In this document: positions 35,461 through 41,222 of the stretch, piece after piece | Position numbering within the stretch: position 1 is the stretch's first letter | How the letters are laid out: each line of letters begins with the position of its first letter | Source of the DNA: an uncultured Clostridia bacterium | GTDB taxonomy: Bacteria > Bacillota > Clostridia > DUPQ01 | Length of the DNA stretch: 64,000 nt | Reading direction: 5' to 3' | Assembly (NCBI GenBank): GCA_963766335.1 | Contig: CAVXZA010000002.1 | Location: 1,918,791-1,982,790, forward strand | Notes under the pieces: model-generated | What the model saw: only the letters and a program-made list of their open reading frames with translations | The model's database searches: none | Told to the model about the DNA's origin: nothing | Made by a program: the position numbers and the translations under genes

Positions 35461-37092
35461 ATGCTGGATAAGGCAGTTGAGAATGCTAACATCGAAATGA
35501 TTTTGGTCAACAAGAACGGGGATATTGTTTACGGCAATAGTCTTTTTGTTGCACATCATGATTATGATGCCGGCAGAACTACAATCTATGACATCTTTAT
35601 TGAACTTACCCATAGCAAATGGAAAGAAGAATGGAACCTGCTTCAAAAAAACGGTACAAATAAGTACGATACTTATGTAATGCAGATAGAAGGACATGCA
35701 AACAATTATGAAGTCCTTGAAAGCATGATGAAGATAGATGAAAACAAACTTGTTTCAATCTATTTGATCGATATAGAAAACCGCAAGGAACTTGAAGAAA
35801 ATCTTATTCATTCAGTTACCCATGACACACTGACAAGCCTGCCTAACAGAAAAGGCATGGATAAAGTCATAAACAGGATGCTAAAGTATGAAAAAGGCGC
35901 CGTTATGTTTATTGACCTTGATAATTTCAAGAGGGTTAATGACATATACGGGCATGAATCGGGCGATGAACTTATTAAAAATGTCGCTGACAGAATAAAG
36001 AGCATACTTCCGGAAAATGCTGTCCTTGGCCGACAGTCAGGCGATGAATTCATTCTGGTTCTTAAAGACATTGAAAATTTCAAAGAAGGAATTCGTCTTG
36101 CAAAAAAACTGACAGACACTTTAAAATTACCATTCAACATTAATAAAAATATATTATATCTAAGCGCCAGCGTCGGCACTGCTTTTTATCCTGAACACGG
36201 CCGGAGCAGGGCGGCTATTTTGTCCAGCGCAGATATAGCAATGTATAAGGCGAAGGTCCAGGGCAAAGCTCGTTTTGTTCTTTATAACAATGAAATGAAA
36301 TATAATCTAATTGATAGGCATAATATGTATGTCGAACTTGAAAGAGCCCTTGAAAATAAGGAGTTTGAGTTGTATTTACAACCAATATATAACGTAAAAT
36401 TGTCAAATATAATCGTACTTGAATCTTTTATAAGGTGGCAGCACCCTGAAAAAGGAATAATATATCCCAATGAATTCATACCTCTCGCTGAAGAAACAGG
36501 TTTAATTATAGAAATAGGGAAGTGGGTTCTCAAGGAATTATCGCGCATAATGAGGTATTTTAGGGAAAACGGCATTAAAAAGCTAAGTTTTTCAGTAAAT
36601 CTCTCTCTATTCCAGCTGGATGATCATGGATTTGTCGAATTTATTAATAAACAGTTTGAAAAGAACGGGTTGAAAAAGAAACGGTTGTGTTTTGAAGTTT
36701 CTGAAGAGCTTGTGCAAAATATATCACATGTCGAAATAGATAGGTTAAAGGAACTTCGTGAAAACGGTTATAAAATAGCTATTCACGATTTCGGTTATAA
36801 ATATGCACTCATGTCAATCCTGGACAAAATAGAGCCGGATATTATTAAAATTAATAAACTCCACAACAAGATACACGACCTGGAAGTACAGAAACAAATA
36901 ATTGAGAATTTAAAAACCCTGTCAGACTATATGGATATCAAATTATTCTGCGAAGGCGTTGAAACAGAGCTGCAGTTTACAACGTTCAAGGAAATAGGCA
37001 TCAGATATATGCAGGGATTTCATCTTGGCAAACCTCAAACTGTTGAGAACAGCTTGAAAACCCTTAGGGAAGACAGGCTGACAGCCATTTGA
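35461..37092 (+). CDS. PAS-like/GGDEF/EAL c-di-GMP signalling protein (SGDEF; degenerate EAL)
   Basis: HDTLTSLPNR, FIDLDNFK, RQSGDEF; ESFIRW, HDFG, EGVE, QGF. Confidence 0.9.
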   Translation: MLDKAVENANIEMILVNKNGDIVYGNSLFVAHHDYDAGRTTIYDIFIELTHSKWKEEWNLLQKNGTNKYDTYVMQIEGHANNYEVLESMMKIDENKLVSIYLIDIENRKELEENLIHSVTHDTLTSLPNRKGMDKVINRMLKYEKGAVMFIDLDNFKRVNDIYGHESGDELIKNVADRIKSILPENAVLGRQSGDEFILVLKDIENFKEGIRLAKKLTDTLKLPFNINKNILYLSASVGTAFYPEHGRSRAAILSSADIAMYKAKVQGKARFVLYNNEMKYNLIDRHNMYVELERALENKEFELYLQPIYNVKLSNIIVLESFIRWQHPEKGIIYPNEFIPLAEETGLIIEIGKWVLKELSRIMRYFRENGIKKLSFSVNLSLFQLDDHGFVEFINKQFEKNGLKKKRLCFEVSEELVQNISHVEIDRLKELRENGYKIAIHDFGYKYALMSILDKIEPDIIKINKLHNKIHDLEVQKQIIENLKTLSDYMDIKLFCEGVETELQFTTFKEIGIRYMQGFHLGKPQTVENSLKTLREDRLTAI

Positions 37093-37264: not shown

Positions 37265-38614
37265 TTATAAATTCAGAAGCCGCATAGCAACACTGAAATA
37301 AATTAAAACAGTAACTGCATCAACTATAGTTGTTATCAACGGAGCCGCCATAATTGCCGGGTCCAGTTTTAATTTTTTTGCAATTATAGGCAGGCTTCCG
37401 CCGACAATCTTTGCAACGAAAACCGTTATTATCAAGCTAACGCTTACCGCTGTTATAATGAAAATATTATTGATCCTGTCAATCAAATACATTTTAATAA
37501 AGTTAATAACGGCTAAGAAAAATCCTACCATCAGCGATACACGAAGTTCTTTCCAGATGATTCTGAAGAAATCGCTTAACTCTACAGTACCCAAAGCCAA
37601 TCCGCGGATTATCAAAGTGCTGGCCTGGCTGCCGGCATTTCCGCCTGTGCCCATCAGCATCGGTATATATGCCGTCAGAATGACATATGTAGCCAGCATG
37701 CTTTCATAGCTGCGTATAATAGCCTGTGTAAAAGTAGCTGTTATCATCAGGACCATCAGCCATACAAAACGTTTGCGAGCCATGCTAAATGTTGATGCTT
37801 TAAGATATTCTTCTTCCAAAGGCAAAATAGCTGCCATTTTTTCAATATCTTCACTGACTTCTTCCTGAACGATATCAAGTATATCATCAACCGTTATAAT
37901 TCCGACCAATCTCTGTTCGCGATCAGTAACCGGCATGCTCAATGCGTTGTATTTCCGGAATAAAAGCGAAATTTCTTCAACATCCATAGATGTAGGTATA
38001 TTAATGATTTCTACATCTTCAGACATTATTTCAGATATTTTTTTTGAATTATCTGCCAATACCAGATCTTTAAGTGTAACTTCGCCTTCAAGGATTCTAT
38101 TAGGACCGATTACATAACATGTATTAACAGTTTCTTTATTAATGCCGATCCGCTTGATTCTTTCAATGGACTCCCCCACCGTCATTTCTTTTTTAAGATC
38201 CATGAATTCTATTGTCATGATGCTGCCGGCACTGTCCTCGGGATAATTAAGGAACTGATTTATAATTTTTCTTTTTTCATTATTGGTATTTCTTAAGACT
38301 CTTTTGACAACAATTGCAGGTAATTCTTCTATGAAATCCACTGTATCATCTATAAAAAGCATATCAATCAACTGCTGTATTTCACTATCAGTAATTGATT
38401 GAACTATAAATTCCTGCATATCCGAATCGAGGTTTGAAAAAACCTCTGCAGATATATCCTTAGGCAACAGACGAAATAAATACAGCATCTGTTCATCCGG
38501 TATATCGCCCAGGAATTCTGCGACATCAATCGCATTCATTTCAAGAAGCAAAGCATGCACATCAGCATACTTCTTCTGATCTAATAGTTCAATTATGTAT
38601 TCTTGCAAAGCCAT
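37265..38614 (-). CDS. mgtE: Magnesium transporter MgtE
   Basis: YPEDSAGSIMT, CBS pair, GTGGNAGSQ, DPAIMAAPLITTIVD. Confidence 0.95.
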   Translation of the reverse strand: MALQEYIIELLDQKKYADVHALLLEMNAIDVAEFLGDIPDEQMLYLFRLLPKDISAEVFSNLDSDMQEFIVQSITDSEIQQLIDMLFIDDTVDFIEELPAIVVKRVLRNTNNEKRKIINQFLNYPEDSAGSIMTIEFMDLKKEMTVGESIERIKRIGINKETVNTCYVIGPNRILEGEVTLKDLVLADNSKKISEIMSEDVEIINIPTSMDVEEISLLFRKYNALSMPVTDREQRLVGIITVDDILDIVQEEVSEDIEKMAAILPLEEEYLKASTFSMARKRFVWLMVLMITATFTQAIIRSYESMLATYVILTAYIPMLMGTGGNAGSQASTLIIRGLALGTVELSDFFRIIWKELRVSLMVGFFLAVINFIKMYLIDRINNIFIITAVSVSLIITVFVAKIVGGSLPIIAKKLKLDPAIMAAPLITTIVDAVTVLIYFSVAMRLLNL

Positions 38615-38665
38615 AACTGCCTCCTCAGGACCTGGGACGCAGCTGGTTAAATCGCGTCTTAGTCC
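38615..38665 (-). promoter_or_regulatory. Mutually exclusive sequestrator/anti-sequestrator hairpins over the mgtE RBS
   Basis: Segment 38628-38644 pairs either with 38654-38665 (contains the uORF stop) or with 38615-38628 (contains the GAGGAGG RBS); paired by hand. Confidence 0.6.
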
Positions 38666-38706
38666 ACTTTATTTTTATTACGCCGTTTCGGTAACGGGAC
38701 TTCCAC
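38659..38706 (-). CDS. Putative MgtL-like leader peptide MEVPLPKRRNKNKVD
   Basis: GTG start 6 nt after AAGGACGGTG; two CCG Pro codons then KRR; stop 44 nt before the mgtE ATG. Confidence 0.65.
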   Translation of the reverse strand: MEVPLPKRRNKNKVD

Positions 38707-38843
38707 GATTTTCACCGTCCTTAAAATTACTCTTTTATTATGTTATCTCATAATATTAATTAAGACAAGTATAAAATATTTCCTGCAATTCAGATTGCCA
38801 ATGATTTTCATATTAAAATAATAAATAAAGCTTTCAATATATA

Positions 38844-41222
38844 CTATTTTTTTAAATTGACTACTGTTACCCCGGTTTCGCCTTCGCCGTATTTCCCGAG
38901 CCTGAATGAATCGACGTGTGTGCTATTCCTTAATAAATCATGAACAGCTTTACGAAGCACACCTGTTCCTTTGCCATGTATAATCTGTACTTCTTCAAGA
39001 GAGTTCATTGAAGCATTATCAAGGAATTTGCTAACTTCCATATCAATTTCATCACTTGCATAGCCCCTTATATCAAGTTCCAGCTCTAATTTAACGGTTT
39101 TACTTACTTTATAAGTATTAAGGATAGTTTCTTCTTTATTCTCATTTTCTTTTATCTCAAGATTTTCAGATTTAATCCTGATTTTCATAATCCCGGCCTG
39201 AACAAGTACTTCGCCGTTCTTATCAGCAGGTTCAATAACTGTCGCTTTTTGATTTAAATTAATAATCCTGACATCATCACCGGCCTTTAATGCTAAATTC
39301 CTGCTATTGTTAAAATTTTCTCTTGTAATTACAGGCATGTCGGGAGAATCCTCCTCCAAGACTTGTTTATATTTTGTCCTGAATGCAGCTTCGATTTTAG
39401 CACTGCCTTTAATTTCTCCTGACTTCTTTAATTCGTTAAGCTCATTAAGAAACTCATCGGCTCTTTCCCGGCTTTGTTCAATTATTCTGCGCGCTTCTTT
39501 CTTTGCTTCATTAATTATCCTTGTTCTTTCTCCCTCTACCTTTTTAAGGCGCCTGTTTAATTTATCTCTTATATCATTGGTTTCCCTGGAATTGTTTATA
39601 GCTTTAACTTTCTCTTTTTCTATACGCTGACGGCTTTTTTCAAGCGATAGGATAACATCCTCATAATCAAGATTATCTCCGTCAATGAATTTCTTTGCAT
39701 TTTCTATAACCCTTTGGTCCAAACCAAGGCGTCTGGAGATATATAATGCGTTGCTTTTACCTGGAACACCTATAAGTAGCCTATATGTAGGCCTAAGTGT
39801 CTTGACATCGAATTCACAACTCGCATTCTCTATTCCATCCGTGACCGAAGCATACATCTTTATTTGCTGGTAATGAGTTGTGGCAATGGTTGTACACTTC
39901 TTCTCCATCAAACGTTCTAAGATAGAAAGCGCCAATGCCGAACCTTCGGAGGGATCAGTACCTGCTCCAAGCTCATCAAATAAAACCATGGAATCTTCGC
40001 CGCATTCTTTCAAAACTGCGATAATATTTGTTAAATGTGAAGAAAAAGTACTTAAGCTCTGTTCTATGCTTTGTTCATCGCCTATATCAGCATACACATC
40101 ATGATAAACCGACATTACTGTTCCTTCAGATGCCGGAATCGGCAATCCGGCCTGTGTCATGAGTGTCAGCAATCCAATAGTTTTAAGCGAGACAGTTTTT
40201 CCTCCTGTATTTGGACCTGTAATAACAAGGGTGTTAAATGAGTCACCTATATGAAAATCAATAGGTACGACAATTTTAGGATCCAATAATGGGTGACGCC
40301 CTTTAACAATCCTTATTTTCTTTTGTTTATTTACTTCCGGGATCATGTATTTCTCATTTAGAGCCATTATGGCTTTTGAAAATGTTACATCTGCATATAT
40401 CAACAATTTAAAATTTAAATTGAATTCAATGATGTAATCACGTGCCATATCGGATAGAACACCCAGGATTCGCTCTATTTCCCTCTTCTCTTCAATACCA
40501 AGTTCTCTTATATCGTTATTCAAATTAACAACATCCATTGGTTCAATATAGAGGGTTGAACCGCTTGAGGAAGTGTCATGAAGCATTCCCTTAATGTTAT
40601 TTCTATATTCCTGCTTAACCGGTATAACATAACGGTTACTGCGCATCGTAATCACATTATCCTGGATGTATTTACTGTACTTTGAGCTTCTTATATAGTC
40701 ATTCAACCGGTTTCTTACCTGATCCTGTTTAGCAAGGATTTTTCTTCTTAAATTATGAAGGTCGGGACTGGCATCGTCAGCCATTTCTTCCTCACTGATA
40801 ATGCACCTTTGAATCTCCTTTTCAAGAGAATTAAATGAGAAAAGACCCTCCAGTTTAGTTTTAATATTTATAGCATCGTTATCATAATCAATGTTAGATT
40901 CCTTTAGATATCTTTTCAGACGGTCGGCTACATAAAGGTTATCCCTTAATGAAATAAGTTCCTTATTATTTAAATTAGCTCCGATTTTCAATCTTCCGGT
41001 GATTTTGGAAATATCTTTAATTCCGGACAAAGCAGGGTTGCCTTTTCTTTCAATAAGACTTATAGCATCCTTAGTTTCAGCAAGCAAATCATTAATTGCA
41101 TCCAAATCAACCAATGGTTCAAGTTTATCTATGAAATCGGAGGTAACCTCAGACCCTGCATATTTCTTTAATATGCCTAGAACTTTGTAATATTCCAGTT
41201 TTTTTAAATATATGTTTTTCAT
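38844..41222 (-). CDS. mutS2: MutS2 (endonuclease / ribosome-collision splitting factor)
   Basis: ITGPNTGGKT, DIGDEQSIEQSLSTFSSH, DELGAGTDP, Smr IIHGKGTG. Confidence 0.95.
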   Translation of the reverse strand: MKNIYLKKLEYYKVLGILKKYAGSEVTSDFIDKLEPLVDLDAINDLLAETKDAISLIERKGNPALSGIKDISKITGRLKIGANLNNKELISLRDNLYVADRLKRYLKESNIDYDNDAINIKTKLEGLFSFNSLEKEIQRCIISEEEMADDASPDLHNLRRKILAKQDQVRNRLNDYIRSSKYSKYIQDNVITMRSNRYVIPVKQEYRNNIKGMLHDTSSSGSTLYIEPMDVVNLNNDIRELGIEEKREIERILGVLSDMARDYIIEFNLNFKLLIYADVTFSKAIMALNEKYMIPEVNKQKKIRIVKGRHPLLDPKIVVPIDFHIGDSFNTLVITGPNTGGKTVSLKTIGLLTLMTQAGLPIPASEGTVMSVYHDVYADIGDEQSIEQSLSTFSSHLTNIIAVLKECGEDSMVLFDELGAGTDPSEGSALALSILERLMEKKCTTIATTHYQQIKMYASVTDGIENASCEFDVKTLRPTYRLLIGVPGKSNALYISRRLGLDQRVIENAKKFIDGDNLDYEDVILSLEKSRQRIEKEKVKAINNSRETNDIRDKLNRRLKKVEGERTRIINEAKKEARRIIEQSRERADEFLNELNELKKSGEIKGSAKIEAAFRTKYKQVLEEDSPDMPVITRENFNNSRNLALKAGDDVRIINLNQKATVIEPADKNGEVLVQAGIMKIRIKSENLEIKENENKEETILNTYKVSKTVKLELELDIRGYASDEIDMEVSKFLDNASMNSLEEVQIIHGKGTGVLRKAVHDLLRNSTHVDSFRLGKYGEGETGVTVVNLKK

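Follow-up and report, generated by a model that had tools for sequence, protein, structure and literature searches.

We analyzed a stretch of 64,000 nucleotides (nt) from an uncultured Clostridia bacterium (GenBank assembly GCA_963766335.1, contig CAVXZA010000002.1, positions 1,918,791 to 1,982,790; this whole stretch is "the window" in what follows) and find that its Mg2+ channel gene, mgtE, is preceded by a leader that carries a short upstream open reading frame (uORF) with its own Shine-Dalgarno (SD) sequence, together with four RNA segments that can pair in alternative ways, one of which buries the SD sequence of mgtE. The leader ORF and the helices upstream of mgtE are confirmed as real and lie far beyond chance. 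On balance, we think that the leader is probably a translational attenuator of the ermC type that is driven by an N-terminal peptide like those of MgtL and of intrinsic ribosome destabilization (IRD) sequences. The controlled gene, the frequent stacking of the module behind an M-box and the likeness to published MgtL and IRD sequences point to Mg2+ as the putative signal.

The mgtE leader in the window

The spacer between mutS2 and mgtE is 229 nt long, and both genes and all of the leader features lie on the minus strand (Table 1); in a profile search, mgtE is the single MgtE match of the genome. A first-pass annotation of this DNA had placed a uORF, its SD sequence and the mgtE SD sequence in the spacer, and the sequence has them as described, at 38722-38659 and 38626-38620. 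The uORF reads GTG GAA GTC CCG TTA CCG AAA CGG CGT AAT AAA AAT AAA GTG GAC TAA; its stop codon stands 14 nt ahead of the base of the SD hairpin, and sequences like AAGGAGGTGA are found ahead of the uORF start in 41 aligned leaders.

The first-pass annotation had also described two competing folds for this leader, and both exist. In fold A, segment 2 pairs with segment 3 (2:3; GGAC..GACGC with GCGUC..GUCC; -11.5 kcal/mol); in fold B, segment 3 pairs with segment 4 (3:4; -16.4 kcal/mol) to form a hairpin that covers GAGGAGG and extends to 3 nt from the ATG; because the two folds have nucleotides in common, they are mutually exclusive. Peptide-controlled access to the mgtE SD sequence remains the best reading of this switch; what the two-fold picture missed is a long-range helix, P1, in which segment 1 pairs with segment 2 (1:2; -16.2 kcal/mol), that is, AAAUCGUG (the uORF spacer and start codon) pairs with CGCGAUUU, and AGUCC (codons 2-3) pairs with GGACU (just before the stop codon). 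Segment 2 is shared by P1 and fold A, so the leader has the layout of a four-segment attenuator: 1:2 together with 3:4 hides the mgtE SD sequence, and 2:3 frees it. The combination of 1:2 and 3:4 is the ground state (-32.6 kcal/mol), that is, segment 1 holds segment 2 by default and the mgtE SD sequence is buried. The minimum free energy of the whole leader is -37.1 kcal/mol (z = -2.31), a value that is equaled in 3 of 200 shuffles.

Table 1. Coordinates of the leader features, the flanking genes and the tandem loci (window positions unless a locus is named).
Feature	Position	Strand	Basis or remark
Segment 1, 5' strand of helix P1: GGU, AAAUCGUG, AGUCC; uORF spacer, start codon, codons 2-4	38697-38716	-	folding; tests of own vs swapped leaders
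Segment 2: GGACU-AA-GACGCGAUUU-AACC; contains the uORF stop; partner of segment 1 (P1) or segment 3 (fold A)	38645-38665	-	folding
Segment 3: AGCUGCGUCCCAGGUCC, anti-SD strand; partner of segment 2 (ON) or segment 4 (OFF)	38628-38644	-	folding
Segment 4: CUGAGGAGGCAGUU; contains the mgtE SD GAGGAGG, ends one base ahead of the ATG	38615-38628	-	folding
Leader ORF (uORF), GTG start, 15 codons + TAA, MEVPLPKRRNKNKVD	38659-38706	-	sequence; conservation in relatives
uORF SD region, AAGGACGGTGA	38712-38722	-	sequence; 5-6 nt before the GTG
mgtE SD, GAGGAGG	38620-38626	-	sequence
mgtE, Mg2+ channel gene, presumed target of control	37265-38614, ATG 38614	-	Pfam MgtE_N, CBS, MgtE
mutS2	38844-41222	-	Pfam MutS_V, Smr, MSSS
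Predicted -35 box, TTGTCT	38763-38768	-	CTTGTn at equal distance in 11/12 related leaders; not evident in L004
Predicted -10 box, TAACAT	38740-38745	-	relatives show TATAAAAT, TGTTATAAT or TGTTATAGT at the matching place
M-box + terminator, then uORF module (within 10-25 nt), then mgtE	L033:1177-1515; L060:351-694; L013:2818-3154 (-); L015:2821-3185 (-)		four inspected tandems

Conservation in close relatives

MgtE is present in 34 of 41 related genomes. A uORF with helices of the type seen in the window occurs in all eight genomes of the source genus and in two of the four genomes of its sister genus; each of these genomes has one copy, located at mgtE. The uORF keeps its start codon, its SD sequence and its reading frame, and its insertions and deletions are in frame (e.g., a 6-nt insertion in the relative G007). 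A covariance model (R1) that was built from 10 leaders of two genera matches 10 of 10 in front of mgtE, one per genome. In the source genome, the match at mgtE is the single accepted one; the others (E-values of 0.157, 2.12 and 7.83) were taken as chance, and the best of these (L112) is without such a uORF. As a model for the whole family, R1 proved too narrow: among 97 loci beyond its two genera, it identified L033 (E-value of 0.032), L027 (0.35) and a chance match at L024, and it matched none of the eight genomes of genus g3, which carries a subtype of its own. A pattern scan of metagenomes returned 26 loci; six of these are real leaders, including four new variants, and 20 are chance matches within coding regions.

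Within the source genus, segments 1, 2 and 3 change together: they read GUCC/GGAC/GUCC in the window, GUUC/GAAC/GUUC in two genomes and AUGUU/GGCAU/AUGC in one genome. Both folds of the first-pass annotation are kept in relatives with compensatory changes of this kind. In eight well-aligned leaders, pairing reaches 95.5% for the pairs of the OFF state, 3 of which are doubly changed, and 91.4% for those of the ON state, 1 of which is doubly changed; the helix cells of segment 4 (3:4) are 100% paired. The covariation signal is modest because this group of eight leaders is shallow.

The leader peptide in the wider clostridial family

For a wider sample, we collected 110 mgtE loci, 80 of them on named contigs (Clostridia, Tissierellia and a small number of other taxa) and the remaining 30 in related genomes, and surveyed every SD-preceded ORF of 8-60 codons within 350 nt upstream of mgtE. 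The second residue of the 138 surveyed uORFs is most often Asp (51) or Glu (24), with Trp (10) next in frequency. A uORF that begins with M[DE] is present in 71 of the 110 loci, with controls of 2/110 in the reverse complement and 1-7/110 in 20 shuffles; the stricter pattern M[DE]x0-3P is present in 49/110 loci, with corresponding controls of 1/110 and 0-4/110. The uORF is conserved across this wider family.

The 68 distinct peptides in this sample (alternative starts located upstream and in frame in L013 and L060 were left out, as were the second matches in L033 and L063) have a small residue at position 3 in 99% of cases and at position 4 in 84%, compared with 46% at positions 13 and beyond. 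Asp, Glu and Pro together account for 31-43% of the residues at positions 4, 5 and 7 and 21% at position 6, compared with 9% from position 13 onward; positions 4-7 are enriched in Pro, and an early Pro is missing in about a third of the peptides. The family shows M-[D/E]-small-small followed by enrichment in Pro, and the "PLP(K/R)RR core" that the first-pass annotation had singled out is not a conserved feature, its KRR being confined to the source genus.

The start codons of the uORFs vary (22 ATG, 16 GTG and 9 TTG), as do the stop codons and the Pro codons (18 CCC, 15 CCT and 14 CCG). In an alignment of the uORF start region (A4, which leaves out L019, L049, L056, L070, L022, L051, L031, and L024 [upstream sequence too short]), codon 2 contains an invariant A. 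This nucleotide is paired in P1 in 8 of 35 leaders, and its neighbors are paired in 20-30 of 35; because it is paired in so few leaders, RNA pairing does not explain its invariance, and a GAN codon does. We dropped a model of this start region from sequence alone because the mean column identity of A4 is only 56%.

The conserved ORF, SD sequence and start would also suit a functional micropeptide (e.g., a regulator of MgtE), with helices that just tune co-expression, and the peptide of an M-box-associated uORF in mycobacteria is discussed as possibly functional in the available text of PMC12810186. We consider a micropeptide highly improbable in the clostridial case: conservation is limited to the first 5-7 residues, and peptide length (13-40 residues) and the C-terminal parts are free to vary, the C-termini ranging from highly basic (in the window) to hydrophobic.

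Some leaders in the sample have features of their own. In Ruminococcus bromii ATCC 27255 (L098), the uORF extends from -183 to -99 relative to mgtE and is of the type without early Pro (MDADGNKGAVPGRS...). In four leaders with MDAGP-type peptides (L018, L023, L024 and L064), the uORF is located at -335 to -120 relative to mgtE and P1 is present; these leaders have an additional 120-220 nt of strongly folded sequence ahead of mgtE, and they match neither the M-box nor any other Rfam family. At L039 (1139-1455), mgtE seems to begin right after the SD hairpin, with an acidic N-terminal extension of ~80 residues.

Helices in the wider family

Helices 1:2 and 2:3 are specific to the leader that carries them. 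We compared own and swapped segments in 35 leaders of the early-Pro type, leaving out L022 (a near-duplicate of L016) and L062 (no SD pairing in its local fold). For 1:2, own segments give -16.28 kcal/mol vs -11.8 +/- 0.48 kcal/mol for swapped segments; for 2:3, the values are -14.15 vs -9.5 +/- 0.47 kcal/mol; none of the 5000 permutations run for each helix is as good as the real set. The same result is obtained with 21 diverse leaders that were hand-picked as one representative per peptide or sub-family type (-18.26 vs -12.38 for 1:2 and -14.71 vs -9.44 for 2:3; 0/5000 each). In 33 of the 35 leaders, the stretch of segment 2 that pairs with segment 3 shares 4 nt or more with the 3' strand of P1. 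We also folded 12 leaders without early Pro; most of them show, by eye, a long-range helix and an SD hairpin.

Proposed mechanism and the evidence against it

In the mechanism that we favor, the transcript would start ~25 nt upstream of the strongly SD-preceded 15-codon uORF. In the OFF state, segment 1 (the uORF start) would pair with segment 2 (around the uORF stop) and 3:4 would bury the mgtE SD sequence; the uORF start would be hidden as well. A ribosome located on the first codons (M-E-V-P-L-P) while segments 2 and 3 emerge would allow 2:3 to form, leaving the mgtE SD sequence open (ON); a ribosome that reads to the stop codon would pass over segment 2 and erase 2:3, and the RNA would return to OFF. 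Low cytoplasmic Mg2+ would make ribosomes dwell longer on the acidic/small/Pro codons of the N-terminus, in line with published work on MgtL and IRD sequences, so more MgtE would be made. Both uORF translation and the direction of the switch are what we infer from this architecture. As in ermC, the key variable would be whether a ribosome occupies the first codons, over and above the block at the uORF stop that the first-pass annotation had proposed.

Several results count against this mechanism. Related sequences are not independent, so all of the counts given here are inflated. P1 takes up the Pro codons themselves in 22-25 of 35 leaders, which means that the conservation of Pro may lie partly at the level of RNA; residues 2-7 contain one to four Asp, Glu or Pro residues, and the EPDPTP of MgtL is richer. 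The ribosome-footprint folding that the first-pass annotation had suggested as a check does not predict a switch in the window: fold B beats fold A at equilibrium under every ribosome mask, and the partition function assigns the mgtE SD sequence in the window the same unpaired probability (0.20) without a ribosome, with a ribosome at the Pro codons and with a ribosome at the stop codon. Across the family, a ribosome mask opens the SD sequence by >0.3 in 9 of 36 leaders; in transcripts that end before segment 4, the pairing of segment 3 increases by >0.3 in 6 of 35 leaders (the mean changes from 0.61 to 0.71); and SD accessibility is 0.35 in leaders with the uORF vs 0.34 in mgtE leaders without it (Mann-Whitney p = 0.75). 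Because equilibrium folding in the window favors OFF under all masks, an ON state would have to arise kinetically or with the help of the 30S subunit. Finally, 10 of 36 leaders have a uORF stop that lies in the SD hairpin or past it, an arrangement that would suit both attenuation and positive coupling between uORF and mgtE.

Such positive coupling would make the leader an RNA-first switch: P1 would be the sensor (e.g., stabilized by Mg2+) that hides the uORF start, and the peptide sequence would be secondary. We think this unlikely, and the same applies to its detailed form, in which the opening of P1 would allow uORF translation to unwind the leader and termination-reinitiation to feed the mgtE SD sequence. 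P1 does extend over the spacer and the start codon of the uORF (from -10 to +3, each position is paired in 18-30 of 35 leaders), and OFF is the ground state; in one of the 10 leaders with a late stop (L012), the uORF stop overlaps the mgtE ATG, and all four of the examined leaders that have a terminator-bearing M-box have a uORF that ends in the hairpin. However, the uORF stop precedes the SD hairpin in the window, as it does in 25 of 36 leaders, and ribosomes that terminate there would leave the hairpin closed; in addition, positive coupling leaves unexplained the leader-specific 2:3 complementarity, the acidic/small/Pro N-terminal signature and the unpaired invariant A of codon 2.

Known RNA families and the M-box

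The first-pass annotation had allowed for a known riboswitch in this region, and none was found: positions 38400-39000 of the window, searched against Rfam 15 with permissive filters, gave six chance-level matches (E-values of 1.1-9) and no Mg2+ leader. Rfam includes the enterobacterial mgtA leader as the Mg_sensor family. The M-box (RF00380; 44-bit threshold) has no match at E <= 10 in the same interval and none in the whole genome (97.65% complete); the controls, B. subtilis and L. lactis, match. The leader in the window belongs to neither the MgtL/mgtA leader family nor the M-box. At the other loci, Rfam scans at the gathering threshold placed no family on the leaders except M-boxes further upstream.

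A complete M-box is present upstream of mgtE in 15 of the 110 loci, and in nine of these 15 the uORF is located between the M-box and mgtE. Four of these tandem loci (L013, L015, L033 and L060) were inspected: a clear intrinsic terminator separates the M-box from the uORF module, and all four uORFs end inside the SD hairpin. In the relatives concerned, the tandem arrangement shows that the uORF is part of the mgtE transcript.

The stacking bears on a further alternative, namely that the same attenuator responds to a different signal: the supply of prolyl-tRNA or amino acids, the status of elongation factor P or ABCF proteins, polyamines, or general translation capacity. Stacked elements often integrate different signals, and Pro is enriched at residues 4-7 of the peptides. 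Park et al. reportedly found in 2010 that the Salmonella mgtA leader senses proline besides Mg2+. We nevertheless judge a different signal to be quite unlikely: the module is seen only at mgtE (all 10 R1 matches, including the single match in the source genome), about a third of the peptides are without an early Pro, and the source genome is without an M-box, so the module would be the sole recognizable Mg2+-related control of its only mgtE.

The only gene of the CorA family in the genome (L115, G000:C2:1498808-1499665) has a plain SD sequence and neither such a uORF nor such a leader structure. Ordinary neighbors near mgtE at three unrelated loci are a thiamine pyrophosphate riboswitch (L018:2964-3073), a T-box (L068:3967-4196) and a glmS ribozyme (L053:164-319).

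The first-pass annotation knew of no description of such a leader in Clostridia, and our search of the full-text literature, with subscription journals and supplements outside its scope, likewise found no prior description of the mgtE leader module. The "mgtE motif" of the Breaker laboratory is unrelated; the available text of PMC11109978 reports it from Thioalkalivibrio only.

Promoter and gene context

The predicted promoter of the leader is of the sigma-70 type, with a spacer of 17 nt between the -35 and -10 boxes and a distance that is fixed in 11 of 12 leaders. From its position (38768-38740), the transcription start site is predicted at ~38733, inside the conserved AAAAGAGT and ~25 nt upstream of the uORF GTG. 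A pattern scan found no terminator-like site between mutS2 and mgtE on the minus strand, so read-through into the leader is possible. In several relatives, the same Smr-domain C-terminus is encoded upstream of the leader. On the other side, a GGDEF-EAL gene (cyclic di-GMP turnover; 35461-37092, plus strand) is convergent to mgtE.

Comparison with known systems

In textbooks, Gram-positive bacteria control Mg2+ uptake with the M-box, and leader-peptide, ribosome-mediated sensing of Mg2+ is, to our knowledge, known only from enterobacterial mgtA and corA. The leader described here resembles the MgtL and CorL systems in that a Mg2+ transporter gene has a leader with a short uORF, the peptide has an acidic residue right after Met as well as prolines, and the leader structures are mutually exclusive; for MgtL and CorL, expression of mgtA and corA is inversely related to the efficiency of uORF translation, as described in the available text of PMC11552253. 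According to the available text of a preprint (bioRxiv 10.1101/2021.02.02.429294), the EPDP that follows Met in MgtL aborts or slows translation within six residues, and this early effect is stronger at low Mg2+ and is helped by small residues. The same text describes the IRD sequences of Chadani et al. as having Asp/Glu and Pro near the initiator Met, with small neighbors, and locates them on the Mg2+ homeostasis genes mgtL and ybeX/corC (bioRxiv 10.1101/2021.02.02.429294). The peptide in the window, M-E-V-P-L-P, has the acidic/Pro N-terminus of the MgtL type, in a weaker form than EPDP; the likeness of the clostridial peptides to IRD sequences, at one to four Asp, Glu or Pro residues in positions 2-7, is one of composition alone, and the hosts are not E. 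coli.

Other features separate the clostridial leader from that of MgtL: the two are without sequence or structure homology (no Rfam match), the hosts are Bacillota, the target is the channel gene mgtE instead of a P-type ATPase gene, and the uORF start is itself within a helix. The predicted output is also different, that is, SD sequestration (translation) here and Rho-dependent termination in MgtL; the last helix of the clostridial leader buries the SD sequence and abuts the ATG of mgtE.

With ermC and cat attenuation, in the textbook model, the leader shares an ORF with its own SD sequence, a segment 1 within this ORF, four segments of which 1:2, 2:3 and 3:4 can each pair, an off state that consists of 1:2 and 3:4, and a 3:4 helix that sequesters the SD sequence of the regulated gene; in the mechanism proposed here, a ribosome held on early codons would, as in ermC, free segment 2 for segment 3. 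In ermC, however, the inducer is a ribosome-bound antibiotic, whereas the clostridial system involves no drug-resistance gene and the proposed stall signal (Mg2+) is intrinsic; also, segment 1 here includes the uORF start codon.

The M-box (ykoK, RF00380) likewise controls mgtE in Bacillota and shares leaders with the uORF in 9 of the 110 loci; in contrast to the uORF module, it is an aptamer of 160-170 nt with a terminator and does not need translation. Mycobacterial uORF2 (Rv1805A) is under the control of a translational platform that belongs to the M-box itself, with termination by Rho, and the available text of PMC12810186 reports the peptide as mycobacteria-specific; the clostridial module also occurs without an M-box.

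Significance

We tentatively propose, as a view that may well hold yet falls short of probable, that Clostridia and Tissierellia have a widespread, undescribed class of ribosome-based Mg2+ sensor in which an M-(D/E)-small-small-(P) peptide senses cytoplasmic Mg2+ by way of its own early elongation and gates the translation of MgtE through an ermC-like four-segment RNA; this class would have an origin independent of MgtL and would be stacked on an M-box in some lineages, giving two layers of control (transcription and translation), and would replace the M-box in others, including the source genome. If this is true, mgtE would have a second, unrelated class of leader peptide, and the translating ribosome would have evolved as a Mg2+ gauge more than once. 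The carriers of an M[DE] uORF in the clostridial sample include the gut genus Ruminococcus, Oscillospiraceae and Tissierella; the named gut species Ruminococcus bromii (L098) could serve as an experimental system. The leader, at ~110 nt, would then also be a compact natural test bed for the disputed sensing of Mg2+ by acidic/proline N-termini (stalling vs ribosome destabilization), and the tandems of M-box and uORF offer a naturally occurring example of one gene with two stacked sensors. For Clostridia that are without an M-box, the module would, if this is true, account for the regulation of their sole mgtE.

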